Shown here piece by piece: positions 23,144-64,000 of a DNA stretch of 64,000 nt. The translations under genes were made by a program, and so were the position numbers. Origin of the DNA: Tubulanus polymorphus (taxonomy: Eukaryota; Animalia; Nemertea); the NCBI RefSeq assembly GCF_964204645.1, contig NC_134027.1:14788485-14852484 (forward strand). Reading direction: 5' to 3'. The first letter of the stretch is position 1; the number at the start of each line of letters is the position of its first letter. The notes under the pieces were generated by a model. The model had not been told where the DNA came from. It saw only the letters and a list, made by a program, of their open reading frames with translations, and made no database searches.

Positions 23144-23305
23144 ATTTGGCTAGCAGTGAAACCTTACATGGATAATTATTACAGTAAACAGGATTTTGAG
23201 ACTCCAGTTTTTTCGCCTACATCGTCATTTCTTGGCCAGCCACCGGCACCGAAGCGGCGCAGAATGTCCCGTGCTCAAACGGCTTCTGCAGAAAAAAAGA
23301 CATGA
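23144..23305 (+). CDS. HAL: Histidine ammonia-lyase, last coding exon
   Basis: Polypyrimidine tract + TAG acceptor, phase 0 matching the previous donor; IWLAVKPYMDNYYSKQDFETPVFSPTSSFLGQPPAPKRRRMSRAQTASAEKKT*, resembling the W..A.PY...Y...SPT C-terminus of animal HAL. Confidence 0.85.
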   Translation: MWLAVKPYMDNYYSKQDFETPVFSPTSSFLGQPPAPKRRRMSRAQTASAEKKT

Positions 23306-23925
23306 AATGTACAAATTATAAATAAGGTTATATAAAAATGATTTTCGTCTCATCGGCAACTAGTATTTCAATGTTATTTTTCATACTTGCTATCAAGAGT
23401 CGTATTTGACAAGTTGGACAAAATGGGCAGTGGCCCTACGGCATTGGTACGACAATTCGGAGACGCCACCCAACTTGAGTTACGAGAATTCCCCTATTTA
23501 AATATCGTTAAAATGCACGCAGTTCATGAAGGATCATTTATACAATTATAACAGAAGACAGGCACAGGTTTGTTTGGTAGAATTTGTAATTAATTGTAAT
23601 TTTTTTGTGACCTGAAAATACTAAGCAGCAAACTATTCTCGCTGGGCGTATAAGTGGAGGTCAATATTTGTGGTGGTAAAATCCGGAGTTTAAAACGGTC
23701 CATTTTACACTACCGGTATGTTTCTTAGCTTTGGTGCCCCTGCGCTGGAAGAAGTTGTAAGACTTTCATTATTCTGCCACTTTGTGATTGGTGATGAATT
23801 TCGTTTAAATATTGCTCATAATGCACATAAATTTTTCAGAATAAAATATTTTCCCTACCTACCTGTAAATTTTTGACATGGACTGTAAATCCAAAAATTT
23901 TTGGAAAAGATAAGATACAACATAA

Positions 23926-26985: not shown

Positions 26986-27280
26986 ATCTCAGCAATTTGA
27001 TTGATCGAGTCGCTGACGAGAACGGACGATTGCTCTGTGATACACATATACAGTGAGTGCGCGCAACAACAGCTGCGCGTGGATAGATCGATACAGCGAG
27101 TCGCTACCGAGAACGGTTATTAACCCGTGTGCTATTACTGTAGTACAGTGATTGCGTGTCAGCTGTGCTCGGATAGATAGATGCTGTGAGGCTTGGGTGA
27201 GAACGGTTGATTGTGTGCATGTTATATACAAGGGGAAGTAATCCCCACTCATCACCACAAGTAATTTTGTTTTCTTATAA

Positions 27281-29925
27281 ATGGGAGAGAGTGAACAACA
27301 CACAAAACAAATTGATGTTAATGAAAATCAATATTATTGCACATATTGTAAAAAATACGTCGATAAATCTAATAAAACACGACATGAAAAAACTGCAAAT
27401 CATATAAAAATGTTATAGATTTTGAAACACCAGAAAATTCCTATGAAAGAAAAGAACAATTAGAAAATATGAATGTGGATGAAATAAAATGTGAAGTTTG
27501 TAATGAATTTATAGTAAAAGGAATTATAAAAGACATATCAAATCACAAAAACACCATCAAAATTTGAGTAATAATGTTTTAGGAATAGATTATTTCGATG
27601 ATAAACCTCAACAAGTAAAAAAATAAACTTCAAAAACTAAATCCATTTCAAATAAACCTTACATGGAAAATGTTAGAAATTATATCGATTCACTAGAAAT
27701 AAAAGATACAATTGAAATTTTCAGAAACATTACATAGTGAAATTGGTCCCGCGGCTATTATATTTAGATTTTTTAAAGGTACAAAATAATAGAAAAAATA
27801 CTAGATTTGATAACAGATGTTGAATATCCAAAAATTAGTATCTCTGGAAAAGTAAGTTTTATAAAGTCAGAAGATGAAATGAATTATAATATTCAAACAC
27901 TCTCTGAAGAAATAATTTCAAAAACACAAATAAAAGAGAAGTTAGAAAAAATATTTAATGAATTTAAACGTCATATTGAAGAGAGATATTTTGAGGGTTC
28001 TGGTTTAACATTGAATGAAATTTTTATAGATTTAAATGTTTATATACAAAAATGAATAAAACATCAAAAAGTAAAACAATGTTAAAAGATTCAAACTTTA
28101 CAACAGAAAAGGATATTAAAGCATCAAGTTATATCAAATTACCATTTACAACAAAAGCAGTAATAAATGTTCAAAATGAAGATAATAAATGTTTTCTATG
28201 GTCAATTATTAGTTGCTTACACCCAACAGAAGATATAACGCATAGTTTTAGAATAACAGATTACCGGAAATATGAAACATTATATAAAATTGATCAATAT
28301 CCAGTAACTATAAAAATGATTCCTAAAATAGAAAAAGTTAATAATTTAAAAATAAATGTATTCGAATTAATGCAATTACCAAAGACAAAAGGTGAAAATA
28401 TTAGAGATTAAACATTAGAAGCTTTATATTTAACAGAATATTATGATGATGAAAATGCTATAGATTTGTTATATTACAAAAAAAGATGAAAATGAACATT
28501 ATATGTGGTTAAAACAAATTGATTTATTCTTTAGAACAGAAAGTGATCATCATCGTAAAATTTATCTATGTAGAAAATGTTTATCTAAATTTATGAATAC
28601 ATTATTAAAACATAAAGAATTATGTGATAATAACGATTTTTGTAAATTAATAATGCCAACAAAAAAAGATTGTAAGTTGAAATTTACTAATCATAAATTT
28701 AAAAATATTGTTCCATTCGTAATTTATGGGGATTTTGAATCGTTGAATAAAGAATTAACTGATCAAGATAGAAAAGAAATATATAACAAAAAGCAATTTT
28801 TAAAATCAATGGATAAAGGAAATGAATTAAATGAAGACATAAATCAAGACCCACCAATCATAAACACAATTTAAAAAGTTCATCAAATAGCTGCTGCTTA
28901 TGGAATTTACATGAAATCAAATTATCCCGAATTATATGAAAGTCAATATATTTCTTTTAGTGGTGAAAATGTAGTTAATGATTTTTGTAATAAAATGATT
29001 GAATTAGAAAGTGATTTTGCAGAATTATTAAACAAAAATAAAAGAAAAGTTATGACAAAAGAAGTTGAAATTGATTTTAATTATGCAACTCATTGTTGTT
29101 ATTGTGAAAAACGTTTTTATTCATTGTTAGAGATCATGATCATTTAAATTCAAAATACCGCGGAGCTGCTCATGAAGATTGTAATTTACAAGCTAAGAAA
29201 GTTAATTTCGTACCAATATTATTTCATAATTTATCAGGCTATGATACCCATCTATTTATAAAACATCTATTTATAAAACAATTATCGGGAAAATTTGGCG
29301 CAATTAATCAAGAAATAGAAGAGTATAATGCTATGAATGGCGCAAATGTAAGCAAATATGATTTTAAACTATTAGCTAAAACATCAGAAAATTATATTTC
29401 ATTTCAATTTGGTTGCATTAGATTTTTAGATTCTTATAGATTTTTAGCAAGTTCATTAGATAATTTAGCAAAAAGTTTAGTTGATAATGATTTTATAATC
29501 ACTCGACATTATTACCCAAATGAACAAGATTTTAAATTATTGAGATATAAAGCAGCAATTCCTTATTCATTTTATAAAACACGATGATTTTAATGTAACA
29601 GAATTATTAAAAGAACAATTTTATGATCAATTAAAAGAGGAGTATGTGAAAGACGAAGTTTTTAATAGAATATTGAATATATGGAATCATTTTAAGATAA
29701 AAAATCATGGTGAATTAGTAGATTTATATTTGAAATCAGATGTTATGGTATTGGCTGACATATTTGAAAAATTTAGAGAAGTTAATTTGAATCATTTTAA
29801 TGTTGATCCTTGTTATTGCTACTCTAGTCCTGGTTTAACCTGGCAATGTGGTTTAAAATATACAAATGTGGAATTAGATTTATTAAAAGAACTAAACAAG
29901 GTTTTATTATTTGAAAAATTATTTA
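27281..29925 (+). pseudogene. polB: Polinton protein-primed DNA polymerase B, 5' two-thirds (copy B), frameshifted and truncated
   Basis: C2H2 fingers, NEDNKCFLWSI, VIYGDFES, CCYC..RDHDH..YRGAAH..CNL, FHNLSGYD, RFLDSYRF, YLKSDV; highly similar to 37660-41472; preceded by TIR segment 27015-27260. Confidence 0.9.
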
Positions 29926-30446
29926 AAACCAGGATTATATAATTTAGATACATTAGCCCAAGAAATTAATAAAAAAGCTCGAGCTAAATTAGGAAGTGAT
30001 TCCGGATTTAACATTAGATTTTCAAAAAGTGATAGTTCTAATGAAATAAAGATTAGGTTAGCCCATGTTGAACAATTTAAATTTACAGTAAGAAAACCTT
30101 TAGCTAAACTGTTAGGAATTAACCCAGATATTGTTACAGTAAACGCATAAGGTAGATCAAACTTAATACCTTAGACACATTTCTATATTTATTGTAATTT
30201 AATTGATTCTACAAAAACATTTGAAGCAACTAAAGAAACAATTTGTAATTCTGGTGTATTAAATATTTTACCATTAAAAAATGTTAGACAATTTGGAACA
30301 CAAATTAATTATTATTTTTCAGAATGCGGATTTAAACCTTGTATTCCACATTTTAATAATTTTAAATTAGAAATAAGAAATCATAATGGTTACTTAATTG
30401 ATTTAAATAATTTTCCCGTAGTTTATGAATTAGTTATAAGATGTAG
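29925..30446 (+). pseudogene. Probable Polinton minor capsid (penton-like) protein, 3' part
   Basis: KPGLYNL..L...IN; frameshifted YIYCNLIDS, LNILP, LEIRNHNGYLIDLNNFPVVYELVIR pattern; position among Polinton genes. Confidence 0.5.
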
Positions 30447-30469
30447 AGAGTAATTTTTTGACTATATAA

Positions 30470-31560
30470 ATGAATATAACTGTTGGACCGAGTATATGTT
30501 TTGGATTTGATTTTAAACGTGAGAAAGAAATGAAATTTAACATTAATGATGTAATAACTCATATTAAAAATATTGTATTTACTAATGAAACAACATTTGA
30601 TTACGAAACAACAATAGATAAAGAATTGTAGAAAAGATTACTGATTTAATTAAAGAATCTTTAAGATTTTATGAATTAGATGAAGATTTTATCATTAATG
30701 ATATTAAAAAAATAATAACTGAAATATATGAAAATGAAACTAATAATATTATAAATGTTGAAATAATTATAACTAAATATTTTGAAGATAAGTGATTTTT
30801 TTTCTAAATAAATGGCGGATCAGAAGTGGATAATAACTGGTTCATATAATGGAGCATTATCATCAGTGGGAACTGTTGGTTATACAATGGTATTTAAAAA
30901 AATATTTAAAATGGGAAGTATTAATGTTGATAAATTTGACATCAATGATATTTTGAAATTAACATTAGCAGTAACTTTATCTAATTTAACAATTGATTAT
31001 TTGGAAAAACAAAAATAAATTCCTCCTATATAAATGCGTAATTTTTTTACTAGATAAATGGCATCTGCAATTATATAACTATTCTAGGATCAGCAATTGT
31101 TAATGCTTTAGCATTTACTGGTGGTGGCTATTTATTTAAGCATATTGATAAAAATAGTTCATTAGCAGAACAAAGAAGACATAACTTAGCATTAGAGAAA
31201 TACAATAAAGCTGTAGAAGAATACAGAGAAAAGAGACAAAATTACATGGATAACATTAATAAAGAATTATATAATCAGAAAATTACACGTAGAGATTTTA
31301 AATCAGTCGATGACGCTATGAGTTTATATAACGCAGTAACAAATAAAGAAAAATTACATCTATATAAACCTAAATTATCAGATTATTATACACCAAGTAG
31401 TGAACAACAAAAATATGAAATAATTTGGATTTTAGGTGGAACAGTTATTGTATTATTTGTTGCTCATAAATTTACTAATTAGTAGTTTCTTTTCTAAATA
31501 AATGGATGATAAAGTTGATAATATTGATATTATTCCTCATGATATCAATAAAACTAAATT
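30470..31560 (+). pseudogene. Cluster of small Polinton accessory ORFs (starts 30470, 30812, 31058, 31502)
   Basis: AT-rich, tightly packed ORFs each starting at TAAATG; the 31058 ORF has hydrophobic GSAIVNALAFTGGGYLF plus coiled-coil EQRRHNLALEKY. Confidence 0.6.
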
Positions 31561-31904
31561 AAAAATATAGCTGCAAAGCAGCGATAACGGGTTTTCTGCA
31601 CAGTCTTAGAATCCTGTTCAACGGTGGATTTCGACACAGCATTTGATAAGGCACAACATCAGCCATTACTAAACAGGCTATTAGGAAACAGTATCAATGA
31701 TAGGTCGCTCAAATGGCTAAGCAGTTATCTCTGAACGAAAACTTGTAGCCGAAATCAACGGAACGCCTCCTCTTGGAATAAGTCGGTCTAACTAGTGGAG
31801 TCACGCAGGGTAGTATCCTAAGTTGTCTTCTGTTTAATGTCCTGACAAATGACATACACAGTAATCCAAAATATACCAGACCGAGTAAATTTCCAAAACG
31901 ACCT

Positions 31905-32378
31905 TAATTCAGTTTTCGGTTTGTTATTGATCAATATGTTACTAAGTTTGTTATTGTATTTAAAGATAAGTTGTTTATTTAGTGACCGAAGAGAAACTTT
32001 AGAATTCTCGAGGAAAGGTACATACGGTACAATGATAGGCTGTTTATCGGTAGCCAAGTTAGGAGTTCTAAGGTTGTTATTTCTAAAATGCGTAGTACGA
32101 GCTTTAAGGAGAGCTTTTTTCAATATGAAATTGGGGTAGACAAGTTTTTTGAGAGGTAGGTTAATATGTTGAATTTCATCGGGTAGGAATGAGGGGTCGA
32201 AAATTCTCAAAGCGCAAAGAAATAATCCTTGAGCTAAACCGAGTTTAATATCTGGAGAAGTAAAAGAGAAGTAATGGAGGTAGGATTCAGCGTTGGTAGG
32301 TTTCCTATAAACCGCGAATTTCCTTTCTGGATGTTTTGATTTTTAACTGTGGATCCTTTTTGAAATTCGCGGTTTATA
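31905..32378 (-). mobile_element. Penelope fragment with short internal inversion, next to a short LINE RT remnant (~31600-31900)
   Basis: Near-identical to ~24660-25125; adjacent DFDTAFDK..H..LL..L and GVTQGSILS-like remnants. Confidence 0.8.
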
Positions 32379-32388
32379 TATATATAAA

Positions 32389-33148
32389 TTGATTATTACA
32401 ACAAGTAATTCAAATCTACATAGTAAAACAATAAAACATAAAGAAAACGTAAGAAAATACCAAGAACTTAATGAAGATCTATTGCCAAGATATGATCGAA
32501 AAAAATGCCCACAATGTATTTATGTGTACTTAAGACAAGAAGATACTGTGATATTTTGTAATGAATGTGGATGGCAAAGAAATTTATGGGGTGATGAAAA
32601 AACTAGAGATATTTTTATGAAACCAAAGTTAAAATATCTAGATGAAATTTATAAGATATTTTCTATGGAAGATCATACACCAGAATATAAGCAATGGCTT
32701 GAAAAATGAAAATGATAGAAAATAAAAATGGTGAAAGATATATTAAAAACGATTATTCCATCTACTTGTAACACAAAAGAAAAGAAAATCTATTTATATT
32801 TATTATTTAACGATTATTATAAAAAACCTAAATTAACAAAAGAAGATATGGAAAATATAAAATAAACATTCATAAACATATTAAAATATTATGTGGATAA
32901 TATAATAACAGATTCAATAAATTATGAATTCTGTTTAAATAAGATTGTAAATTTTTTAAACATCGATATTATAATTCGATTTGATGAATTAACGAACAAA
33001 AAGAAACAAAGAGAGCTAGATGTAATGTGGAATAATATAGAACTTTATTTAAATGAGAAAAAATGAAATGGAAGAACCTAAACAATTAAATGAAAATGAA
33101 GAAGCCAATAGTGATTTCGAGTATGATGATATTGATTTTCTTTTTTAA
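32389..33148 (+). CDS. Small Polinton accessory ORFs, first with a CxxC...CxxC zinc ribbon
   Basis: CPQC...CNEC in ORF 32389-32709; AT-rich, convergent with the pPolB stop. Confidence 0.45.
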
Positions 33149-33221
33149 TGGCCATAAGGTAATGTTTTTATTCCATCACCCAAAATATATCTATTATCAT
33201 CGAACGGATTTAAACTAGTTT

Positions 33222-35381
33222 TTAGCATTGGTTGACGTCTATGACGTCATGCCAATGCTAATAAAATGGATCGAAAATAGTAGTACGAAAAATAGCGCCG
33301 ACTCTTCTCATTTTCATAGCAACTTCAAATTGTCACTCCGTTCACGTAAAACATTAGAAACAGCTGGAAATGACTAAAAAAATGTTTCAATTATTCCCCA
33401 CAACATAGCGTCGCCAGATTTCTGATTTAATGGTCCAAAAAATTATTCGATCGCATTTTTCTCGTTCATTATCTGGTAGATGAGAGCGGGTTAAACAATG
33501 GCGTAGCGATATGTCCACGTTGACATTGGCAGTAAAGAATGGGGAACAGCCTCTGCTGAATAGAAAAACATAAAATTATATACCTCTGGTTTATAAATAT
33601 CACAGTGTTTGGATATTACTGTTATTCCAACTATCAGTATCCATGGGATTATTTTGGATTCATTCTCAGCGTCAGAATACGTATTTCTAGAACAGTGGAA
33701 CGGCAGCCTACTCGTGACTGAAACCCGTATGGGATCGTGCGGGAACGCCTTTACTAAAGTTAAAACCATTTCATGATGACACGAAACATCAAACGGTAAA
33801 CGGTAGGCTACCACCATGATACGATATCACCAATAAAGACAGATCATTTTATTCAATTTTACCAGAGTTGTTTATTGGAGGAAAATATCATTGTTAAGTA
33901 CACCGAGAACAACCATGTTGTATCATCAATCAGTTGACTGACATTGTAAAATTCGATTCGGCTATATTCTAATATAAGTTTTCACTTTAGGACACCTAGT
34001 TAGTTACCTAATCGTTGGTAGTAAGCTTTTTATAATCGGATGGATAAAATGTGAATAAGTGTTGATTTCTTAGTTTTTTTCAATTTCGTCGTTTTGCTTT
34101 GTTAGTTTGTGCTGTTGTCCTGGCCTCAGTCCACAGGTGCCAGCACCTCCAGTAATTTTCAAAATGGCAGCTGTTGACTCGACGGAAATTTACTCTCACT
34201 TTACGGCCGATTTGCACATGGATTAAGTTCGTCAGGTGAGGTGTTATAGGTATCAGACAAACTACGAATCTGTTGTGCGTGTGTTGATTACAACAAAAAT
34301 TAGACGGATATCTTAAGAGACAATGCCAGGCAAATTACTCGTCAGTCAAATTGGCTGACGAAGATTTCATTGAAAAATGACCTTCCCATTCCTGACTGTG
34401 GTTTGTGAAAATATCCGATCGTGAAACTAAACCACAGACAGCTTACTGACTATAGGACACCCTACCCGCCTGCTGCGCACTCATAAGGCGGTAGCACCCT
34501 CTTACACACTCGGCAGAGATTCGCTTTGTAATGCGCGCCGGGAAAAAATACCTTTTATTATCTTTTCCATGCGTTAAACAACAGTGATTGAATTTACGCG
34601 TTGTTTGTCGTAAATTGCAATATTGCGATGGTTATTTGCCGTTGCTGTAGTTTTTTGGAATTGAATCGAGCGGCCTCGGTAGCTCAGTGAGATAAGGCGT
34701 GATGCTGTTGAATCCACTATCAATGCTGAGTTACAAGTGGGTTCGAGTCCTGCTGGCTGCGAACAGTGTGCAGGCAACACACCAAAGGCCGTACCGTCGT
34801 GAGAAATGAACAATCCAATAGGAATAGTCTTGGGAAACCAAGATCCAAACGACGTAGGTAAAGCCAAACAAACAAAAAGACAAACAAACAATCATCAGCC
34901 GGCCTCAGTGACACCAATGCCGGCATCGCTCTCTGCGACGTTTTGCATGCGTACATGCATCAGAGCTTGGAGCTCTAAGATCAGAGGGTCTTGCAATTGC
35001 ATTCAGAAAAATCGTTCTTTTTTTGTTTTCATCATTCAGTGGGGCCTAACAGTTCATGCGTAAAAATGGGGTTTTGTATCCAAATCTTGATTGATATAAA
35101 TATCTTGGCTGGGACATGACGGAAAACATCAAAATAAACTAGTTTCGTCTTTTTAACAGAATTGCATTAAAGATGTTTAACAGTACAAATAACCTAGGCT
35201 AAATCGTTCGGCAGAAAATAAATTCATTTTCAGGAATAAAATCGTACTCGACGAATATACCTTTAAGTCTGTGGTCCTCCCAATCGACATCGTCATAGAA
35301 GATTTGCCGGCAGATGTAAAACATTATAACCACTTAATACCACAGTATCTATCAATGCTTCAAGGCCCATGGGCCTCTTGT
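33222..35381 (+). mobile_element. Helentron-type non-autonomous element (HINE) in pPolB C-terminus
   Basis: 5' palindrome TTAGCATTGG...CCAATGCTAA; 3' subTIR CAATGCT + hairpin AGGCCCATGGGCCT; inserted in a T-run without TSD; removal restores EVE-K-TSLNP. Confidence 0.8.
34671..34760 (+). mobile_element. tRNA-derived SINE head inside the Helentron-type element
   Basis: GGCCTCGGTAGCTCAGTG (A box)...GGGTTCGAGTCC (B box); spacing too long for a canonical tRNA. Confidence 0.6.
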
Positions 35382-35750
35382 TTCAACTTCATTAATGTAC
35401 ATCTCGTGATCTTCTGATCTTAAACAATTCATTTTATGTTTCATTACAATTGAGTTATATCAACACTTTATATAATCTTGAAATTCTATGTGTTTATCAA
35501 CCACATGTTTTGTTATTCCTTATAACTTTTTAGCTTCATGATCTTTTGTTCTATAACTATACATTTTACTTCTTATCCCACCAAATTCATCGCCCCCTAA
35601 TTCATCTTTAAATTTACCAGGAATTTTTTTATTATCATTGCTAAATAGTTCATGATCTTTTAGATAATTGCTAAAGTCAAAATGATGTTTTAATGTTTTA
35701 AAGTCTTTTGTTATGTCATTTGTCTTGATTTTTAGTATGTAACTGTCAGT

Positions 35751-36784
35751 ATTCTTTAGGATTAATGGAAATCCACAATTAAATGTACCATCTTCAGTTG
35801 TTAAATCATAAACATATTCTGTAGGATTGGAGTTCATTTTCTACATGCGTTAATTGAAATACATTTGGTTTATCCTTTCTAATATTAACTAACATATTAA
35901 ATCCTAATGAATTGCATAATATTTTTAATCCTAAAATAGCAACTTTTCCTTTTTGTGTCAAAGATATAGTTTTCTGTTTTGTATAGTTGTTTGAACCATC
36001 TGCAGCAAAGAATCCAATGAAGAACCATTTTCTTAAATTATCTTTTGCATTTAATACATAATCTGGTACTATCTTTTCTTCAGTTGAAGCATTGCTTTTA
36101 ACTATTGCATGAATATAGAATTCATCATTATATTTAATTGCAAAATCTTTAGGATTATTTACATGTATTCTATAAACTGCTGATGATTTCAAAACATCTA
36201 TGATTTTAAATGTTTTATTCGGGTAAACTTCTTTACAGTATTTCTTTATTCTTTCTAATAATTTCAAATCTTGATTGCATAAACACCAACAATATTGAGT
36301 TTGATTAACATACTTATACACACCTGCTGAACCATCACCCATGAAAAATCCTTTAATATAATATTCCTTTTCTTCTAATGTTTCAGGTTCTCTATTATGA
36401 ATATTATACATTATTTCATCAAATGACATATGATTCATCTTTTGGAAAAATATTTTATGTAATAATTCATCTCCAATTTTTATATCAGTTGGTTTTATTT
36501 CATCACCAATTTGTTTAATTAAACTATGATCTTCAGTAACATCAACGAATCCTAATTTAGTTCTAACTCTATAGATTTTCTTATTTGTTTTATGCCTAAT
36601 GATATTCTTTAATTTTTTTCCATCCATTTCTTGTCCAAACATCCATTAATCCATTTATTTGTATTAGGTCTTTTTCACCATATGAAATATAAAGTTCATT
36701 TTGTTTTGGAATTATTTCTGAAATTCTTCTAATTAATATTTGGTTATTGTATTTTAATAATATTGGGGTATCAGCTGTTACAGA
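35751..36784 (-). mobile_element. Intein with LAGLIDADG homing endonuclease in pPolB motif C
   Basis: Block A SVTADTPILL after YFD; block B VDVTEDHSL; blocks C/E IKGFFMGDGS and FIGFFAADGS; block F YVYDLTTEDGTF; block G LILKN then +1 Thr (TDS); two frameshifts (~36615, ~35835). Confidence 0.93.
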
Positions 36785-39700
36785 ATCAAAATATAATATT
36801 TCAATATGTTTTTCCCCAAAGAGTGGTTGTAAAACATTATAATAAAAATCATACATTAATAATTTTGATATTTCTAAAACAGTTGAACCAATGAATATAG
36901 GTTTATTAAATTTCATTGACGTTCTTTTTAATTTTACTGCTGTTAAATAATCTTGAAATCTTTCATTTCCTTAATGTCTAGGACTTGATTGTAAATGTCT
37001 CAATCGTTCAGAATTATTTACTAATTCAATATCATTTCTATTTCTAATATTTTCACATGTTTTTCCATTAAAACTATTATTCATTAATTTGAAGAAATCT
37101 TTTTCAAAATCTGTTATTGAAATGGTCCTCTGTTGAGTATTAAAATCTATATATTTTTCTAACCACTTCGATTGATTAGATTCAATATATCTATGTACTT
37201 TCTTTAATTTCATTCCTTGTTTTAGATAAAATTTTAACAATCTATAATGAACAATATAATTGTATCTATTATTTTGAGTAAGTATTAATTTTGCTGTAAA
37301 AACATGATCTTTCGGTTTTATTTTCTTCTGGTATTCACTTAAATAACTATCATCTACGGCTTAATGTTCTGGGCAATATGGTTAGTTTCTTGTTATCTTT
37401 TTGTTATCAGGATATTCTAAATCAACTACAAACAAATAACCAATTGGTGCTTCATCTTCTAAACTCATAATTGCGCTTTCCCAATTAGTTTTATCATCAT
37501 TTTCAACTTCTGTTAATATAAAACTTTTGTATGGTTGAGGTTGCATCATTGCCCAACCATATACATTATTTGCGTCAATATATAATAATTTATATTCATC
37601 ATTTGCTTTAAAATACCTATCTCCCATAACACCACTAATTCCACCTCTAATTGATTTTTCAAATAATAAAACCATGTCTGGTTCTTTTAATAAATCTAAT
37701 TCTACATTTGTATATTTTAAACCACATTGCCAGGTTAAACCAGGACTTGAATAACAATAACAGGGATCAACATTAAAATGATTCAAATTAACTTCTCTAA
37801 ATTTTTCAAATATATCAGCCAATATCATAACATCTGATTTTAAATCTACAAATTCACCATGATTTTTTATCTTAAAATGATTCCAAAAATCTAATGATCT
37901 ATTAAACACTTCATCTTTCACATACTCCTCTTTTAATTGATCATAAAATTGTTCTTTTAATAATTCGGTTACATAAAAATCATCATGTGTTTTATAAAAT
38001 GAATAAGGAATTGCATCTTTAAATCTCAATAACTTAAAATCTTTTTCATTTGGATAATAATGTCGAGTTATTATAAAATCATTATCAACTAAACTTTTTG
38101 CTATATTATCTAATGAACTTGCTAAAAATCTATAAGAATCTAAAAATCTAATGCAACCGAATTGAAATGAAATATAATTTTCCGATGTCTTAGCTAATAG
38201 TTTAAAATTATATTTTCTTACATTTGCACCATTTATAGCATTATATTCTTCTATTTCTTGATTAATTGCGCCCAATTTTCCTGATAATTGTTTTATAAAT
38301 AGATGGGTATCATAGCCTGATAAATTATGAAATAATATTGGTACGAAATTAACTTTCTTAGCTTGTAAATCGCAATCTTCATGAGCAGCTCCGCGATATT
38401 TTGAATTTAAATGATCGTGATCTCTAACTTTTTTTATTAAATGAATAAAAACGTTTTTTTACGGTAACAACAATGAGTTGCATAATTAAAATCAATTTCA
38501 TCTTCTTTTGTAACAACTGTTCTTTTATTTTCGTTTAATAATTTTGCAAAATCATTTTCTATTTCAATTATCTTATTACAAAATTCTTTTACTACATATT
38601 CACCTCTAAAAGAAATATATTGACTTTCATATAATTCAGGATAATTTGATTTTATATAAATTCCATAAGCAGCAGCTCTTTGATGAACATTTTTAATTGT
38701 ATTTATAATTGGTGGGTCTTGAATTATGTCTTCATTTAATTCATTTCCTTTGTCCATTGATTTTAGAAATTTCTTTTTGTTATATATTTCTTTTCTATCT
38801 TGATCAGTTAATTCTTTGTGCAACGATTCAAAATCCCCATAAATTACAAATGGTACTATATTTTTAAATTTATGATTAATAAATTTCAACTTACAATCTT
38901 TTTTTGTTGGCATTATTAATTTGCAAAAATCTTTATTATCACATAATTCTTTATGTTTTAGTATTTTCAGTTCTAAATTTAGATAAACATTTTCTACATA
39001 AATATATTTTATGACTGTTAAAATCACTTTCTGTTCTAAAGAATAATTCTATTTGTTTTAACCACATATAATGTTCATTTTCATCTTCTTTAAAGTATAA
39101 TAATCCTAAAACATTTTCATCATCATAATATTCTGTTAAATATAAAGCTTAAATATAAAGCTTCTAATGTACAATGTTTAATATTTTCACCTTTCGTCTC
39201 TGGTAATTGCATCAATTCGAATACATTCATTTTTAAATTATTAACTTTTTCTACGTTAGGAATCATTTTTATAGTTACTGGATATTGATCAATTTTATAT
39301 AATGTTTCATATTTCCGGTAATTTGTTATTCTACAAACATTTTCCTGAGTTGGGTGTAAACAACTAATAATTGACCATAGAAAACATTTATTATCTTCAT
39401 TTTGAACATTTATTACTGCTTCTGTTGTAAATAGTAATTTAATGTAAGATGATGATGCTTTAATATCCTTTTCTGTTGTAAAGTTTGAATCATCATTGCT
39501 TTACTTTTTGATGCTTTATTCCTTTTTGTATTATAAACATTTAAATCTAAAAATATAATTTCATTCAATGTTAAACCAGACCCCTCAAAATATCTTCAAT
39601 CTGTCTTTTGAATTCATTAAATATTTTTTCAAATTTCTCTTTTATTTGTGTTTTTGAAATTATTTCTTCTTTGTTTGAATATCATAATCCATTTTTACTT

Positions 39701-40143
39701 CTGATTTCTGATTTTCTTCTGAAAACTTACTTTTCCAGAAATATTAATTTTTGGATATTCAACATCTGTTACAAAATCTAGTATTTTACCATGATTTCAA
39801 TAAATTTACTATAATCTTCTATTGTTGCTCCTTTAAAAAATCTAAATATAATAGCTGCAGGCCCAATTTTACTACGTAATGTTTCTAAAATTTCAATTGT
39901 ATCTTTTATTTCTAGTAAATCGATATAATTTCTAACATTTTCCATATAAGGTTTATTTGAAATAGATTTAGTTTTTGAAACTGGTTTTTTTACTTGTTGA
40001 GGTTTATCATCAAAATAATCTGTTCCTAAAACATTATTACTTAAATTTTGTTTGTGTTTTTGCGAATCGAGATGTCTTTTATAATTCCTTTTTGCTATAA
40101 ATTCATTACAAACTTCACATTTTATTTCATCCACATTCATATT

Positions 40144-41287
40144 TAGGGTTTCTGCTGCCTCGGCAGAAACCCTATTGGATTCCTGCTGATTATTATTTTA
40201 ACATATTTTCCACTGAGTTTCGTCACATAAAAATCATCTTCTATTAGATTTGACTACTAACAACTTTGAAACGAAATGTTAAACTCTGATAATAATTTGA
40301 CAGTCTCTTGCTGCGCGTAGTTTCTATGGATGTACTGTGCTTCCTATTTTAAACTTGAAGTTACTTAAAGATTACACCGGTGGAAATAGCAATCATCAAT
40401 CATGGCGCGCACACTGGCGCGAATCTGAAAGTTTGTGACGTCATTTCATAAATAAATAAAGAAGGAATGCTCCGAGAATATCCAAATCGCAGGTAACTGT
40501 AAATAACTGGGGTTCGACCATTCACAACTTAAAAATGTACTTCCTTGTTTGTGAAGTAAGTTTATTCATGCTGTTATTAAAAGCAGTTCCTTTTAAACCT
40601 TCTATAATAGTATAGTTTCTCAATTGAATTGAATTGGTCTAAAGTCAGTTTAAACATCACATACATTACAAACTGGAGGTCCCTTGTACATGTACATCAC
40701 ATCGCGACGCAGCGGCGATGGTAATGTCATAGAAGAACAAAGTGAGTTGAAAATACCTACCCACAGCACCGATAAAGAATGATTGCTAGCCAGAGACCAG
40801 TGACAGTTAGTTAAGGGAATGATGGTACCGTTCGTGATTATGTTTTTATAATGGTTATTGGACGTCAATTTCATATGTGAATTGTAGTCCCCATCTGATC
40901 GCTTGACTTGTCAGACTGACTTGTCACTCCTCTACTAATAGTAACACTATACGGCCTTCCCTCCCGCATAGTTTACCCTATAGGCCAAATTTGTGCTTTG
41001 GGCCAAATTCGGTTTTCTTATCTAGTCGACTTTTTTTCGGAACTAATAATAACTGAATATGCGCTTAAACTGTCACTGTTATTTCCCCGAAAACCTGGCA
41101 CATTAGTACTTTGCGCGTAGTAGCACATTTGGGTCAACATATCCATGTTGTGAGTTGACCCATAGGTGGCACTCTTTCAAAAAAACGGAATGTAACGAAC
41201 TGATTTCGGGTGAAATCTTTGCTCGCATCCCTGAACGACATTGTATCCAGAAAGGCAGAAACCCGTTATCGCTGCTTGCAGCTATAT
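40144..41287 (+). mobile_element. Second Helentron-type element in pPolB N-terminus
   Basis: 5' palindrome AGGGTTTCTGC-TGCCTCG-GCAGAAACCCT; 3' subTIR GCAGAAACCC + hairpin GCTGCTTGCAGC; T-run target; empty site seen in copy B at ~27460-27480; related 3' end at ~31565-31600 (-). Confidence 0.8.
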
Positions 41288-41550
41288 TTTCTAATTGTTC
41301 TTTTCTTTCATTGGAATTTTCTGGAGTTTCAAAATCTATAACATTTTTTTAATGATTTGCAGTTTTTTCATGCCGAGATTTATCAGATTTATCAATGTAT
41401 TTTTTACAATATGTACAATAATATTGATTTTCATTAACATCATTTTTTTCTGTCTGGTACTCACTGTCCCATTTATTAGGGAAAAAAATTACTTGTGGTG
41501 ATGAGTGGTGTGTCGTCCTCTGATCTGAAAACGCCATATTCCAATTACTA

Positions 41551-42944
41551 ATGTTCTATCAAGTGAGGGTGCCCCTGCAAGACAGGGACTGTCTACGCTT
41601 TTTGTTTTGGCCGAACGGCGACGTGACTAAACCACCCGCATGTTACCGAATGACCGTGCATCTGTTCGGGGCCGTGTCATCTCCGAGTTGTGCGAACGTT
41701 ACCCTGAGACGTACAGCCACCGACAATATAGACTTTTTGACAAGGAAGTGATTGACACAATTTCACACAATTTTTACGTCGACGACTGCCTCAAGTGTCC
41801 CGAGGTGCCGTCTGAATCCGCAAAGGTGGCCTCCGATCTTAGAGCCCTGTGTGCTTGCGGCGGGTTCAAGCTCACGCAGTGGTCATCGAATGACACTTCA
41901 ACCATCGACCAATTCCCGATGGAAGACAGAGCACACGAGTCGTATGCGGTCAGCTTAGATGATCACAGCACTCCACCGTTAAGCAGAACCTTAGGCGTCA
42001 TATGGTCGCCAACTGATGACCAATTTAGCTTCCGTGCGCAGGCGACAGATAAGCCTGTAACGCACCGAATCATGCTGTCGTTCGTAAGCTCGATGTTCGA
42101 CCCGATGGGTTTCGTAGCTCCCGTAATCCTCCCAGGAAAAATCATCCTGCAAAAGCATTGCGCGCTCAAGTTGGATTGGGATCAAGTAATCCCCGATTCA
42201 ATGCGCGTACTCTGTGAAGACTGGCTTCGAGATTTGAACTAGCTGATTACCGTTTCGATTCGCAGAAGAAAGAAACCCTTCTAGCTTTGCGGCTTATCGA
42301 AAATGTCCATAGAGCGATCGGTCATCTCGGGACAGAAGCAAATCTGTGCGAACTCCGGAAGCAGGGTCTATGGCTTGTCCAAGGCCAGTAGGCAGATAAA
42401 GCGTTTCGTTCATCACTGTGTTGTTTGTAGGAAAAATCAAGGGCGTGTTTTGGAGCAAAAAATGGTCGGTCTGCCTCCCCCCCAACAGGCTGAAACCTGA
42501 GAAGCCTCTTTTTACACGTACTGGGGCCGACTACTTTGGTCCGTTCCAAATCAAAGTCGGCAGGAGTCTCGTTAAGCGATACGGTGTTATCTTTACGTGT
42601 TTGGCATCAGCCATCCATCTCGAGTGCGCTCATAGTCTCGATACGTCCTCGTGTATTAATGCTTTGCGTCGGTTTTTCGCACGACGAGGAAACGTGCGAT
42701 ACGTTAGATCGGACAATGGAACGAACCTATAGTCGGTGCCGAGCGAGAGCTAAAAGAGGCATTAGAGCATCAGGATCACAAGCTTATGCAAGATACCCTT
42801 AACGACCGCGGTATAGAGTGGGAGTTCAACCCACCACTGGCTTCCCACTATGGTGGCGTGTGGGACCGTCTCATTCGTTCCGTTGGAAAGGTGCTGTACT
42901 CGCTAGTAAAGAAGCAAGCGCACATGCTCACCGATGCGTCTTTT
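41551..42944 (+). mobile_element. BEL/Pao element A, pol fragment (RT to integrase), left part
   Basis: [62 protein letters not shown]. Confidence 0.9.
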
Positions 42945-44133: not shown

Positions 44134-47100
44134 TGTCGGTGACGCCATTCAGTTTGACACAATTCTTTCTCTAGTTTATAGTTTGAACCGCTCTTATCAG
44201 TACACTTTCATTCAGGCATTACGGTAATTCGACTCTCTTTAGATAAACGACTATTTCCAGGCATCACCCACGTCTCTCTTTCCTCTGCGCATGCGTATAT
44301 AATATAACCTTATAGTTTTAGTAAAATATATTCAGTTAGTCATATGGAAATTCATGAGTTAGATCTTATCAATCGATAGTCGCCACTCGGACGGCCAGAG
44401 TCGACGACATTGGTGCCGTGACCAGGATACTATTCATCATCATCAATACACAACGCAATGCATTAATGAATAAAAAAGTCAACTAACTCAAACGAAGTCA
44501 AAAGTTAAGAAAATTCAATTCATCATGACGAAGATCGAACAACTCATCAGAAAAAGAGAATCAACCATCGACGCATTTCATGCGGAATACTCTGTTATTC
44601 TGCAAATAATGCAGCAGACAACGGTAACCGAAGACCAGGGAACTGAGCTCGAAGCTCGCCTGGAAGAATTACAAGACGCACACGAAACACGGGAAAACGT
44701 TTCTAATCAAATCCAAGAGATGATTAGAAATGACGACGACTATAACTAGGGGTCCAGGGACACCATGCCCACTTGGGAAGTGGTTCCAAATGCTCAACAA
44801 TCTAACAATTTGCAATATTCAACGCCCCCTGGTGACCATATACAAAAACCAATGAACTTGAAACTCACCACAATCATAGAACATGTCAGCAGCTACGATT
44901 TTGTAATTGATTGTGATAACAAAATATGCCTCGTTACCAATTTAATATGGAAATACTAAGTTATTCTACTATTTGACGCCTCCTGGTGACCATATTCAAA
45001 ACCCAATGACCTTGAAACTTACCACAATCATAGAACATGTCATGAACTACAACTTTGCAATTGATCATGGTAACAAAATATGCCTAGGTACCAATATAAT
45101 AAGGAAATATTAAGTTACTCTACTATTCAACGCCCCCTGGTGACCATATAGAATAACTAATGTCCTTAAAACTCCCAACAATCATAGATGATGTCATGAG
45201 CTACAACTTTCCAATTGATTGTGGTTACAAAATATGCATAGGTACGAATATAAAATAGAAATGCTAAGATATTGCATTATTCAACGCCCCTTGGTGGCCT
45301 TATACAAAATCAAAGGATCTTGAAACTCACCACAATCATAGAACACGTTATGAGCTACAGTTTTCTAACTGATTGTGGTAACAAAATACGCTAGGTATCA
45401 ATATAATGTGGAAAAACTTTTTCCCAATTACAAATGAGTACTGGTGACACCAAGATGGCCGCCAATTGCGTCATAATTGGCTGATGAAAAATACCGGTCT
45501 CAGGTATAAAACATCCCTTTCCAAAGAATACCCATCACAAGTTGTAATGAGAAATGGTAAACCAGTAGGAAGCTACAGGACTCAGAATTCGGGCCAAAAT
45601 TAACATTTTTGGGCACTAAAAAGGTCATAGGACGGCCATCTTGAGTCCGATCGACCCAATTTTTGTTATGCTGTTGGGCCCTGGGGGGATTCACATATAT
45701 CCGAAAGATCAAGGTAATTGATCAAAGCGTCTTCAAAATTTCCCTCAAAAAGTTCAAAAATATGTAAAATGTGCTGATTTTGGCGAACAACAATGGCTGC
45801 CAGTCAGCCATCTTGAATCTGACAGGGCCAGTTTTTGGGCTGAAGATGTGTCTAGGGTAGATACATGTGTAACCCAAATATCAAGAAATTACCTAGAAGC
45901 GTCTTCAAAACTTCCCAAAATAACTGGATTCCGTCTAAAGTCCCAAGTGGGCTAAAAACGAAACGAAAACATCAAACGCAAGACGATCAGAAGAACGAGT
46001 TAAACTTCTGAAAACCAAACGATATATTGAAAACCACACGAAGTCTAAACGACCCGAAACATCAACTGTCCGGATAACAGACGACAATGATCATCATCAA
46101 TTTACGGCGAGATTACCTAAATTGAAACTGCCTGTATTCGACGGAACTTATACCCAGTGGACAGCGTTCTGGGAAACGATTGAATGCGACGTCATCGCAG
46201 CAAAATTCAGCGATATAACAAAATTCAACTATATCGTCGGTCAGCTTCGGGGAAGCGCCCTCGAAGCAGTTAAGGGACTATTCGCATCCGGCTCGAATCT
46301 CGAGACATTGACATCAATTCTGAAAGATCGTTTCGGACAAAATCGTAAAATTGTTCGAGCGCATATTCAGGAAATCTATGATATTTCATCAACAACTTCG
46401 AACTATTCAGGGCTGTCACAATTTCTAAATAAGATCAACGCGAATATAAGATCATTAAAACATCTGGGCGTTGACGTTAACGCGTGTGCACCATTCATCA
46501 TAACATCGTTAGAGAAAAAACTAGAAAAAATGGGCACATGCGGTCAAAAAGATAACTTTGATCTGGATAAATTCATTAACACATACGAAGAGTGTCTCGA
46601 CAATCTGGGTGAAAATGTAAGTGAAAAATCTCTACAGTACCAACATCAGTATCGAAATTCGAGAACCGGTACTGGGACATCATTGGTATCCGTCACTAAA
46701 CAGACACAGTTGAAATGCACATTTTGTGACGGCGAACACTACCCAACAAACTGTCAACTACCAATCGAAGAGCGTCTTCAAAGGGTAATCGAAAGACGAT
46801 TATGTCGAAACTGTCTCAAACCAAATCATCAAGCAAAGGACTGTCAAAACCGCAATCGCTGTAAAATATGCAAGAAGACACATCACACGTCAATTCACCG
46901 AGATCAACATCAACAAACTGTCTCCGGATGTACATTCGGTCATGCGCAGGATAACATCGTTCAAACATCGGATATAAATAATGTCAAATCATGCGAGGAT
47001 ATGAATTTCAGTATCGATTTCGGAAAATACGCATTGGATACTACCAACATGGTTAGTAATCAAAATCATGATTATCAAAATGAGGTTGTGTTGCTGCAAA

Positions 47101-59474: not shown

Positions 59475-60344
59475 AATGTGGCGGAAATTTGTTTCACTTT
59501 GTTTTGCTCCTTTTATCTTCCAGCTGCAGAGTCCTCCCCAGTTTTTCTTCGTGATCGGAGACGGTGAAATTTTTATTAAATGTTTGTAAGATGTAAAATA
59601 AAACTTTATCACATGTTTGGGAATCTGAGATAAGAATGTAAAATGCTATGGACTTCGGTCTTGTAGATTAAAAGCGATTTTTGTTTCTATCGTAATGAAT
59701 CATTTTATGATTTAGTAGAATTCTAAAAACTGTACTTGAAGACCTTCCCTATGTGCACGGGTCACTCCCGTGTTGTATTTTTCGAGTTCATGCGCCTCAA
59801 TCGATATTCCCGTGCTTAGATCGATATTTCTATGCTGTGCCCTGTGCCCGAGATGGCGCCACTAAACGGTTCTTAATTATATTGTGTGCTCGGGGTGATT
59901 TCTTTGCCAAAATTAGATTGGGTTACGTCATAACCTGGGCTCTATAAAAGGCAAAAATGTGCTTTATTAATTAGTCTCGGTGCATTTTTTAGGTGTGCTA
60001 GTTAGCGTCAGTAATTAGAAGATGGCGTTTTCATACCAGAGGTCGAGAGGTCGAGACACCACTCATCACAGCTAGGCTCTAGTGAGAACGGACGATTGCT
60101 CTGTGATACACATATACAGTGAGTGCGCGTAACAACAACTGCGCGTGGATAGATCGATACAGTGAGTCGCTACTGAGAACGGTTATTAACGCGTGTGCTA
60201 TTACTGTAGTAGTACAGTGATTGCGTGTCAACTGTGCTCGGATAAATAGATGCTGTGAGGCTTGGGTGAGAACGGTTAATAGCGTGCTTGTTATATACAA
60301 GGGGAAGTAATCCCCACTCATCACCACTTTTTTTTTGCTCATAA

Positions 60345-60671
60345 ATGGGAGATATAAAAGCATTCTTAGCAACAATAAATAACAGAATAAAACCAGCAAA
60401 AAAACAATTTGAAATAAAAAAGTTAGTTGATGTTACAAAAGAAATTGAACATAAAATATTGAAATTAGAAAAGATAAAAACTAAATATAGAGAGAAAGTA
60501 TCAGCTAATTTAAGCTACTGCAATGTTAGTACATCGCGAGAATTTAAAGTATTTTTACCTGATAAATGGGTTTCATTGAGTACAGATGAATTAAAAGGTT
60601 TAGAAGGATTTAAAATAATCTATCATGGAAAAAATGAAGATGGGCATCATGATTTAGAAGTTGTTGACTAA
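60345..60671 (+). CDS. Polinton terminal small ORF, unknown function
   Basis: Intact 108-aa ORF; deleted paralogue at 25818-25920. Confidence 0.6.
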   Translation: MGDIKAFLATINNRIKPAKKQFEIKKLVDVTKEIEHKILKLEKIKTKYREKVSANLSYCNVSTSREFKVFLPDKWVSLSTDELKGLEGFKIIYHGKNEDGHHDLEVVD

Positions 60672-60779
60672 ATAATTAAGAAATAAAATAATAAAAAAAT
60701 GAATATCAAGAATCCGAAATGACTTATCTGGACAATTTAATTGCTCCGCATAGATAGACAAAAGTAGTGAGATATTCAA

Positions 60780-61160
60780 TTAATTTAAAAAATTATTTTT
60801 TTGCTTTTTTTCTAAAATATTAATCCATTTTTTTATTATCAATTTTGGAATTTCAGACGTATTTTCATTTTTGATAGCAGTTGTTTCAGAATTATTAGTA
60901 TCATGAATTTTATTTGATTTCTTATACCAATTACACCCAATCAACATGAATACAATTACAAATCCAACTGTAAAATATAGACATTTATCAAATATTCTAT
61001 CATTAGAAGGAGTAGAAATAACAATATTTTCACCATTTTTATTACTTATTTTTTCTTTTACAGCTTTTTTATATTCTTGTGATTTAATTCCTAATTGCCG
61101 AGACCATTCAATTTGTTTCTGTGATCTCGGTTTTTTCTTCACTTCTTCCACCTCGCTCAT
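60780..61160 (-). CDS. Polinton accessory ORF with one predicted transmembrane segment
   Basis: KKPRSQKQIEWSRQLG motif, hydrophobic LYFTVGFVIVFMLIG; TAAATG start. Confidence 0.55.
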   Translation of the reverse strand: MSEVEEVKKKPRSQKQIEWSRQLGIKSQEYKKAVKEKISNKNGENIVISTPSNDRIFDKCLYFTVGFVIVFMLIGCNWYKKSNKIHDTNNSETTAIKNENTSEIPKLIIKKWINILEKKQKNNFLN

Positions 61161-61698
61161 TTATTATAGAAATATTTTTACTTTCAATATTTGAAAATGT
61201 TATAACCCCAGTTGATAATAATGTCATAAATCCGCCTAATTGAAATGATAAATATCCAATCCATTTATTTAATTCAGTCATAACTGAATAATCATTTTTC
61301 AAATCGGAATATAATCTATTTTCATCTTCAATTGGTAGTATATAATTACATAATTTACTATAACCTTTTACTACATTTTCTGATATCGCGTCATTAATTC
61401 TAGCTGTTCTCGCGGCTTCATAAATCTTAAATAATCTAATAATTTCATCTGATTTCATTGTATCTAATTCATTATAAGTTAAATTTTTACCGATAAAATT
61501 TTTACATTTTCCAGATGCTATTAATATTTCTAATTGATGTTTACAATAAAGATAATATTCATAATTATTATTTGTTGTAACATTATTTAAAGCACCATCA
61601 TCTGGAGTTAATTTTGTTTCTGTTATTCCTAAATCATCTAAAGTTTTTTCAATTGGAACATCACCGTTTTTAGATTTTATTTTCTTTTCACCTCCCAT
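61108..61698 (-). CDS. Polinton accessory ORF, unknown function
   Basis: Intact 196-aa ORF with TAAATG start, cotranscribed orientation with the ATPase. Confidence 0.6.
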   Translation of the reverse strand: MGGEKKIKSKNGDVPIEKTLDDLGITETKLTPDDGALNNVTTNNNYEYYLYCKHQLEILIASGKCKNFIGKNLTYNELDTMKSDEIIRLFKIYEAARTARINDAISENVVKGYSKLCNYILPIEDENRLYSDLKNDYSVMTELNKWIGYLSFQLGGFMTLLSTGVITFSNIESKNISIINERGGRSEEKTEITETN

Positions 61699-61869
61699 TT
61701 ATATAACAAAAAAATTAGTTGTGATGTTGCAACTAGAATTTAACTAGAATGTAACTAAAAATCAACTAGATTAACAAACTAGTTGAATTATTATTGTTTT
61801 TATTTATTTTTTGTTAAATCTAGTTGACTAAATATGTAACTAAATATGTAATAGATTAACAAGCTAGTT

Positions 61870-62484
61870 GAATCTAAATAAATTCATATTTAAATGGGTG
61901 TTGTAATCTAAATAGTAATTTTGATCTTTTATTATTTTTCAATTTATCCATATATTCATTATGTAAATCATGCGGAATAATATCATTTTCCTCAAGTGCA
62001 TTTTTCATAGATTTTCTATCTTTATTGTAGAATAAAACTAAAAATCTAATGTTTTCTAAAAAAAATCTTTAACAATTGAATTATATTTTTGATTTAAAAC
62101 CCATGTTGTTATCCCGAAATGTCTACCAGAAAAAGCTAAATAACATAACTCACTCTCTCTAATTTTTGAATCATGTAAATTTGCGCAATCATCTATGATA
62201 AATAATGTATTTGATCCTTTATAAATATCAATTGCTATTTTTATACAATTATCTAAATTTTCTTTTACTGTTTTATGATCTAATATAATAAATTTATTAT
62301 TTCTAGTAATATTTCTGTCATAAGTTTGATTTAATTCATATGTTGGACAAAATAATACTATATTATCAAAATAGTTTTTATAAACAGTTTCTAATAAATT
62401 TAATATAAAATAAGTTTTTCCACAATTTGTTACGCCAGAAATTAACATATTATGAGGCTCAAATATAAATAATTCCTTATTCAT
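61870..62484 (-). pseudogene. Polinton A32/FtsK-like packaging ATPase (frameshift at ~62060)
   Basis: Walker A GVTNCGKT, Walker B FIIDD, GRHFGI..WVLNQ; continuation RENIRFLVLF in another frame. Confidence 0.9.
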
Positions 62485-63612
62485 TTATATATTTTTAATT
62501 TTACTTGATAATATCCATTCATTGAATTTATCTGGCCATCCAACCCATTTTACTAAAGAATATTTTTTTCTTTTAACAGTTTTTGTTTTTAATACTTTTT
62601 CAATTTTATATTCTTGTTCTAGATTTTCAGTAGTTAAACTTAATTCTTCTTCGTAAAAGTAGCCATCAACTTCTTCACCATCTAAATCTTCTAATTTATA
62701 GACATATGGTTTTGTTGTTATTACCTTTTTTATTTTATATATTTCCCTAGTAAAATTTCGATCGTATCCTTTGTCAAATATCTTTTTATACTTAGAAATT
62801 CTAACATTTTGACCAACTTTAAATTTAGGTTCACCAAAATCATCTACAAGAAATGCTCCATATAAATTATTCCAAACAATTTCAGCATTTTCAGGTTTTC
62901 TAGCATCAATAGGTTTCATTCCAATAGAAGAATGATAAGAATTATTATATCCTTCTATCAATTTTGGTAAAACATCAATCCATTTAAAAGTATTATTTGC
63001 TGTAAAATATTTCCACATTCTTGTTCTTATTGTTCTATTAAATCGTTCAACAACTGCTGCTTTTTTATCCGATTTTGTTGAAAAATATTTAATATTATGA
63101 ATGTCTAAGAGTTCATGAACAAGTGAATTATCAAATTCTTTTCCATCATCCAATTGTATTTTTTCTGGTTTTATTTTATCATCCGAAAGAAATTTTCTTT
63201 AAACATTTGATGTTTGTGCAGCATCTTTTCTGTAAAGTGGGAAACTCCATACATAACGACTAAAAATATCAATTATATTCAATATCCACCAATAATCATC
63301 ATTATCTTTCTTAACATTATTCATATCAATTAAATCTCTTTGCCACTGTTGATCTACATAACTTACCATAGTTTTACGAGTTTTATATTTTCTAACATTT
63401 TTTTTATGTGTTGTATATGTTGGTTGTTCTAACATAAATTCATTTATATCTTTATATTTAACTAAATTTTGTGGGATTATCTTATCTAATTTATCTTGTT
63501 TTACTTGACGCCATATATTTTTGGTAGAAGAATAAGCAACCGAACTCTCAGGGTTGTAATATTAATTTCTTAAATATTGTTCTTTAGTATTAGGAGTTTT
63601 TTTACCGCCCAT
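62485..63612 (-). pseudogene. Polinton retroviral-like integrase with C-terminal chromodomain
   Basis: WQ.DLIDM, IDIFSRY, DDGKEF, ERFNRT, YNNSYHSSIGMKP, chromodomain YKIEKVL..LVKWVGWPDKFNEWI; stop/frameshift in 5' part. Confidence 0.92.
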
Positions 63613-63663
63613 TTATATATCGTTAGTTTTAACTTTATATTTCTAATATTGAATACTATCTAA

Positions 63664-64000
63664 TTATGAATTTACAATATTTAATTGTGCGTCAGATATA
63701 ATATAAATGTGCATTTTGAAATTCAAGCTTCCTTTTTTCTTTTTCATGAATAATTGTATTCCATCTTTAGTGTTCTGTAGCTTTTTCCCAGAACCATGTA
63801 ATGAATTATCCTCTGTAGTTCTAAAATCTAACCATAATGCATATTTATTACCAGTATAATAATCAATTTGATTAATATTACAATTTTCAGATGATTTTAC
63901 TTTTTCATTCATAAAATGTTTTCTAATTTCTGGCCATTGATCTATCATTCTCATTCCTTGACAAAATATTTTATTTGCTATTCCTTCAATAGTTATTTCT
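63664..64000 (-). CDS. Probable Polinton major capsid protein C-terminus
   Basis: KYALWLDFRTTEDNSLHGSG...GIQL...YIISDAQLNI; directly upstream of the integrase; assignment from remembered motif. Confidence 0.65.
   Translation of the reverse strand, partial: EITIEGIANKIFCQGMRMIDQWPEIRKHFMNEKVKSSENCNINQIDYYTGNKYALWLDFRTTEDNSLHGSGKKLQNTKDGIQLFMKKKKGSLNFKMHIYIISDAQLNIVNS

Follow-up and report, generated by a model that had tools for sequence, protein, structure and literature searches.

Inteins in the family B DNA polymerases (PolB) of Nucleocytoviricota, that of mimivirus among them, occupy position III of archaeal PolB within the sequence YGD|TDS (the bar marks the insertion point), and the accessible text of the same source also mentions an intein in an insect iridovirus (Ogata 2005, PMC549080). 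In the available portions of the respective sources, reviews hold that metazoan genomes lack inteins (PMC8529194), a survey of eukaryotic inteins gives viral inteins only from large DNA viruses (PMC5784728), and viral-like DNA polymerase inteins are described on nuclear scaffolds of Klebsormidium, Tetrabaena and a labyrinthulid (PMC10710043), the available text of the last containing no mention of polinton, Maverick, metazoa or animal. Inserts with HNH and VSR nucleases have been reported in the protein-primed family B polymerases (pPolB) of Polintons (Jeong 2023, 10.1101/2023.08.22.554363; Krupovic 2024, PMC11071308). In their accessible text, Krupovic 2024 offers the one-sentence suggestion that intein invasions gave rise to such inserts, and Jeong 2023 mentions neither intein, homing nor LAGLIDADG; inteins also go unmentioned in the accessible part of PMC8502044.

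The insert analysed here resembles the mimivirus-type PolB inteins in its motif C site, its Ser1, terminal Asn and Thr+1, its block B Thr and His, its LAGLIDADG motifs and its length of ~350 aa. Unlike that type, the host is a PF03175 protein-primed polymerase of an integrating element rather than a PF00136 polymerase, the Polinton sites read YFD, YMD, YSD or ASD rather than YGD, and the element is located in chromosomal DNA. As in the algal and protist cases of PMC10710043, so far as its accessible text describes them, an intein was brought into a eukaryotic nuclear genome within a viral polymerase gene; the carrier differs here in being a multicopy Polinton for which full and empty alleles both exist. 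With the HNH and VSR inserts, as described in the open text, it shares a nuclease domain within a Polinton polymerase, and it differs from them in having a full Hint domain, splice junctions and a LAGLIDADG enzyme that interrupts the catalytic motif. The original prediction knew of no earlier intein in a Polinton pPolB, and none in a Polinton or adintovirus polymerase was found described in the literature surveyed (subscription journals, Repbase and supplements lay outside its scope), two partial precedents apart; the supplements of Jeong 2023 and Starrett 2021 could contain such sequences unremarked. The Polinton polymerase inteins are apparently an undescribed family, a familiar type of element found in a new type of host.

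The insert and its decayed host gene

The window, i.e. the whole stretch of 64,000 nucleotides that was analysed, carries an insert of 1,034 nt (Table 1) that three-frame translation of 35300-37000 (-) distributes over three reading frames, and which is therefore broken twice, at about 36.6 kb and about 35.83 kb. The translation reads EILYFD|SVTADTPILL at the N-terminal junction (36784) and YVYDLTTEDGTFNCGFPLILKN|TDSYIL at the C-terminal junction (end at 35751), polymerase motif C resuming at GFPLILKN|TDSYIL. The class 1 intein residues Ser1, block B TxxH, block F Asp, terminal Asn and Thr+1 are all present, and the penultimate residue is Lys, as in mimivirus, whereas it is His in the related proteins P0002, P0016 and P0022. 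The unbroken middle ORF of 279 aa matches Pfam LAGLIDADG_3 above the cut-off (E 1.8e-8) and Intein_splicing below it (E 1.4e-4), and splicing models (Pfam, TIGR01445) applied to the intein pieces of the window likewise score below cut-off. The ORF upstream matches PF03175 pPolB (E 1e-11), which identifies the host as a protein-primed family B polymerase. P0200, the closest insert-free polymerase, reads EIMYFD|TDSYIL and in a tblastn alignment matches the two flanks of the insert in the window (69% and 75%), leaving out precisely the insert itself; because this alignment stops at 36782 and resumes at 35753, the insert corresponds exactly to the intein. Sequence comparison thus confirms, as originally predicted, that motif C of a protein-primed Polinton polymerase is interrupted at YFD|TDS by a LAGLIDADG intein, and the same data bear out the blocks A, B (TEDH), F and G, the two LAGLIDADG motifs and the restoration of YFDTDS upon excision. 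A chance motif match was considered as a reading of the insert and rejected. A group I intron with a LAGLIDADG ORF was likewise discarded, Hint blocks being present and the insert of the relatives being in frame with both exteins.

Table 1. Features of the window that concern the intein, its host gene and the neighbouring Polinton pieces.
Feature	Coordinates	Strand	Basis
Intein coding sequence (Hint splicing domain and LAGLIDADG endonuclease), two breaks	35751..36784	-	Three-frame translation, Pfam, tblastn
Block A SVTADTPILL, Ser1 nucleophile	36755..36784	-	Same block in Polinton and giant-virus relatives
Block B TEDH (VDVTEDH)	36526..36537	-	Translation, alignment
First LAGLIDADG motif IKGFFMGDGS	36328..36357	-	Translation, alignment
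Second LAGLIDADG motif FIGFFAADGS	35992..36021	-	Translation, Pfam, alignment
Blocks F and G, Lys-Asn end before Thr+1 of TDS	35751..35816	-	Translation
Decayed Polinton pPolB gene hosting the intein	33145..41472	-	PF03175; tblastn of P0200 and P0001; self-comparison; start motif
Pieces of this pPolB gene	41472-41284, 40144-35382, 33234-33145	-	tblastn, self-comparison
Foreign 2.1-kb insertion, 40% GC, splitting the pPolB C-terminus	33236..35381	.	End matches repeat at window 1047-1729
Foreign 1.1-kb insertion, 39% GC, splitting the pPolB N-terminus	40145..41283	.	Self-comparison, GC
AT-rich Polinton-type ORFs converging on pPolB, with a Penelope piece inside	29930..33140	+	ORFs, Pfam
Second, inverted pPolB copy, 88% identical, ending before motif C	27245..29925	+	Self-comparison, tblastn
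Third Polinton piece: A32 ATPase and integrase-chromodomain	60084..64000	-	Pfam; 92% end segment shared with 27018-27288

The host gene is itself heavily damaged. Its aligned pieces on the two sides of the intein contain 3 and 2 in-frame stops, further frameshifts lie upstream of the intein, and the last codons are found only past the 2.1-kb insertion. The stops, the frameshifts, the insertions and the repeat shared with 1047-1729 together indicate that this pPolB is integrated and decaying among host repeats. The window copy of the intein is thus a dead fossil, with frameshifts, stops and two insertions of host DNA in the polymerase gene. The original prediction of a probably dead copy with two frameshifts holds as regards its death and the two breaks in the insert, but damage to the host gene extends far beyond two frameshifts.

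The intein-bearing Polinton copy is rearranged. The integrase-chromodomain and A32 ATPase genes sit in the separate piece at 60-64 kb, which is linked to the pPolB copies by the shared end segment, and the second pPolB copy, since it ends before motif C, is unusable as an empty allele. The two pPolB copies stand face to face over 27245-41500, a 14-kb inverted arrangement with a shared Polinton gene block between them that may represent a duplication or the fusion of two insertions. The capsid-like ORFs of the window gave no Pfam match; those at 63667-63999 (-) and 29932-30450 (+) resemble, in their motifs, the ends of Polinton major and minor capsid proteins. The ORF at 31054-31479 matches only unnamed protein clusters, and the ORF at 32347-33063 (+) is weakly VLTF3-like (Pox_VLTF3, E 9e-4, below cut-off). 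The Polinton ORF starts at 25812, 30806, 31052, 31496 and 60560 (+) and at 41478, 61270 and 61166 (-) have in common a T-rich stretch ahead of TAAATG. TAAATG is the core of poxvirus late promoters, and the VLTF3-like ORF and these starts offer a lead towards giant-virus-like late transcription. Among the repeats, Penelope-type RT-GIY-YIG copies occur in direct and inverted orientation at 20313-25700 and 31600-32380, one of them within the Polinton block. BEL/Pao elements are found at 44195-51833, 8705-9232, 18256-18774 and 41631-42239, that at 44.2-51.8 kb being bounded at both ends by near-identical direct repeats that are likely LTRs.

Intact relatives, full and empty alleles, and the predicted cleavage site

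An intact intein at the same site of a Polinton polymerase is found in P0001, with 62% identity to the middle ORF of the window. Among the best 120 of the 428 matches of the long-protein search, 7 are Polinton-type polymerases with an insert, 112 are PF00136 family B polymerases, including that with the mimivirus intein (P0064, 41% identity), and 1 is an ADP-ribosylglycohydrolase. Further Polinton-type pieces make up 10 of 18 short matches, and a profile search, in which at least 150 proteins were listed, added P0189, P0198 and many insert-free pPolBs. P0001, P0139, P0141 and P0144 read in frame across one junction or both. The clearest pair of alleles is that of P0124 (full) and P0127 (empty), in which 571 of 574 and 171 of 174 residues are identical on the two flanks of an exact 339-aa insert; exact removal of the insert restores the host motif both here and in P0001. 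Intein-plus and intein-minus alleles as well as intact copies, to which the original prediction had looked for support, are therefore available; what goes beyond it is that the family spans several Polinton lineages and includes full and empty alleles in pairs. P0124 and P0127 belong to the P0005 cluster of 121 members, and the P0140 cluster has 55 members, of which the 15 listed, many of them partial, lie on contigs of 19-825 kb; both clusters look like multicopy endogenous families. P0007, a polymerase of a distant type whose extein has no significant match to the other exteins over the 260 residues upstream, carries an in-frame intein at the same site.

Several relatives are unusual in their setting. 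P0016 (MBV2113503.1) is filed as a Candidatus Thiodiazotropha protein and is a Polinton-type polymerase with an intein; its source is what the submitters name a Thiodiazotropha symbiont bin from the clam Ctena, and it is probably co-binned host DNA. The site of P0001 reads IIYGD, the giant-virus form, YGD occurring in 0 of 55 empty pPolB sites, and this flank was possibly carried over from the donor. P0068 and P0138 bear an intein of the same family in an ADP-ribosylglycohydrolase at the non-allelic site GGD|TDT, from which it follows that this family is able to enter unrelated genes that offer a similar site. The PF00136-type polymerases P0179-P0184, P0187, P0190 and P0192 contain two or three related inteins at motif B (SAN|S) and motif C sites. 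In single-protein scans of viral contigs for relatives, none of the pattern matches was confirmed (0 of 57 and 0 of 2). The scans based on alignments retained 80, 26 and 80 loci, and none of the full inteins extracted from these was Polinton-type by its junction motif; a protein search restricted to 2964-5000 aa, an uninformative range, returned no relative.

The AlphaFold model of P0140, built from a 61-row alignment, has a pLDDT of 91.6. Its best matches among solved folds are the TliVMA intein-endonuclease (7qsu, E 4e-17; also 7qss), PI-PfuI (1dq3), PI-SceI (1vde) and I-DmoI, and its best named viral matches are phycodnavirus, Pandoravirus and Megavirus polymerases; TliVMA, PI-PfuI and PI-SceI share only 11-19% sequence identity with P0140 and are located in archaeal or fungal cellular genes. 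Pfam Intein_splicing passes the cut-off for P0002, as does TIGR01445 for P0140, P0005 and P0016. The model thus gives this intact relative a predicted Hint fold with a LAGLIDADG domain. Of the two domains expected, LAGLIDADG is above cut-off in the window itself; Hint falls below it there and is matched through the fold of P0140. The two LAGLIDADG Asp residues are retained, as are blocks A, B, F and G, in 6 of 6 intact Polinton inteins that were aligned. Among the pairs listed, the splicing parts of these inteins are 44-88% identical and their endonuclease parts 42-87%. The endonuclease is conserved to roughly the same degree as the splicing domain and hence is not decaying.

At the DNA level, the core TA-x4-GA-x|AC-x-GA is common to the window site and 168 of 168 pol-c sites from fetched loci. 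The window has T,T where 99% of these sites have G,G, there being no Gly codon, so that the endonuclease must tolerate this change or have an altered specificity. The form xTD is found at 0 of 12 intein-bearing sites versus 35 of 55 empty sites, a comparison that is confounded by kinship.

Reads of four runs of organism A were compared with the window at 82% likeness. Organism A contains only 23% of the sampled words and thus may be a relative rather than the species of the window; most of its reads are 90-99% or less alike to the window and therefore stem from related copies. In run X5, of which 12% was read, the intein interior was covered ~223-fold and the upstream extein ~414-fold (ratio 0.54), and at the first break of the window intein 143 of 207 reads were without the frame of this copy. 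The N-terminal junction is bridged by contigs from runs X1, X2 and X3, and among the joints listed the intein was skipped by only 5 raw reads and 3 X1 contigs, one of them exactly at the site.

Probable origin and spread of the Polinton inteins

For the intein tree, 294 full inteins were extracted, 3 were dropped, and the remaining 291 were reduced by identity to 93, to which the middle ORF of the window was added. In the resulting 94-row tree the 8 Polinton rows are united in a single clade (100/100), nested within one of PF00136-type inteins (98/94) and away from an archaeal outgroup whose long branches were flagged, and a 34-row mixture-model tree without archaeal rows recovers the same clade (100/100) within PF00136-type inteins (98/97). 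The affinity to pol-c and giant-virus inteins that had been proposed from the sequence is therefore upheld by the trees and by insertion at D|TDS. Many rows near the Polinton clade match IMG/VR giant-virus bins, and one of them, P0017, has a weak Pol-delta-type zinc finger; neither tree supports a single giant-virus lineage as the sister of the Polinton clade. The archaeal- and bacterial-bin contigs L081, L082, L084 and L085 carry polymerase inteins that group with the viral ones, and their bin assignment may be mis-binning or real. From these topologies, the Polinton inteins were likely gained once from a giant-virus-type family B polymerase.

The extein tree comprises 67 upstream exteins, 12 full and 55 empty, and its bootstrap values are not fully settled. 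Intein state changes 7 times on it, and P0200, the extein nearest to that of the window (74%), is empty. The intein of P0007 belongs to the Polinton intein clade, and nested and sister placements are not distinguished (AU p 0.47). Under either placement, its very distant extein and shared intein clade point to transfer between Polinton groups.

The reading that best accommodates these observations, and in which our confidence is considerable, is that the window carries a decayed homing-endonuclease intein whose clade was probably acquired once from a giant-virus-type PolB and then passed between Polintons by homing. An intact element would produce its polymerase as a precursor containing the intein, which would be excised by the standard route through Ser1, the block B Thr and His, the block F Asp, the terminal Asn and Thr+1; the exteins would be rejoined at D|TDS, and only the spliced polymerase would be functional. 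Once released, the endonuclease would cleave Polinton copies whose site is empty, and these would then be converted through repair templated by a full copy. The original transfer would require giant-virus and Polinton genomes in one cell. Co-infection is a plausible route because a Polinton-like virus that depends on a giant virus is known (PMC10120064, the accessible text of which does not mention an intein). Splicing, cutting, homing, and the direction and route of transfer are in each case inferred.

It is unlikely that the intein was instead gained once in an old Polinton lineage, inherited vertically and repeatedly lost with precision, homing now being rare or absent. All 11 Beta-type intein-bearing exteins do fall within one clade of 26 (99/96; the label Beta is our assignment from a weak PF03175 score and the definitions in the accessible text of PMC8502044), and among Beta-type elements the intein and extein trees are broadly congruent, which also fits such a history. 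However, endonuclease motifs that are intact in 6 of 6 inteins and conserved like the splicing domain would be unexpected without homing, and both the P0007 polymerase, with an intein of the same clade, and the almost identical full and empty alleles P0124 and P0127 argue against descent and loss.

The intein would be just as real, in a different host, if the window came from another repeat-rich eukaryote and not an animal, which we consider quite improbable. No host gene was found in the window, most relatives of its intein derive from metagenome assemblies, and Beta-like polymerases occur outside animals as well according to the open text of PMC8502044. Against this, Pao peptidase, DUF1759 or DUF5641 matches occur at several places in the window together with Penelope-type RT-GIY-YIG and LINE pieces, the available text of PMC3118150 treats BEL/Pao as a metazoan class, and P0016 comes from a clam symbiont bin; the BEL/Pao, Penelope-type and LINE neighbours make an animal host highly probable. 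It is scarcely credible that the insert stems from giant-virus contamination or a chimeric assembly, or that it is an intron removed at the RNA level and carrying an endonuclease ORF. The nearest non-Polinton relatives of the insert are indeed giant-virus polymerase inteins, but both flanks are pPolB and not PF00136, the GC content of the intein (25%) equals that of the exteins (24-26%), the pPolB gene is interrupted by host repeats and continues past them, and relatives span one or both junctions in one frame, and on these points a contaminant contig is rejected. The contigs of three runs that span the N-terminal junction and the presence of Hint blocks and fold speak in the same direction.

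Implications for Polintons and their hosts

The Polinton intein family, with its full and empty alleles, limits the rule that metazoans lack inteins to cellular genes. Because the intein splits motif C, polymerases that carry it may be mis-annotated, as with P0016, which is filed as bacterial. The family offers a natural system in which splicing and homing could be tested in animal cells. As a molecular record of encounters between Polintons and giant viruses, it also bears on whether the Polintons of animals act as viruses. More broadly, the sequence comparisons lean somewhat towards the view that giant-virus-derived inteins colonised invertebrate Polintons, splice in animal cells and home between copies and distant Polinton groups. 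If this is true, Polintons would have shared cells with giant viruses and would have been mobile as viruses.
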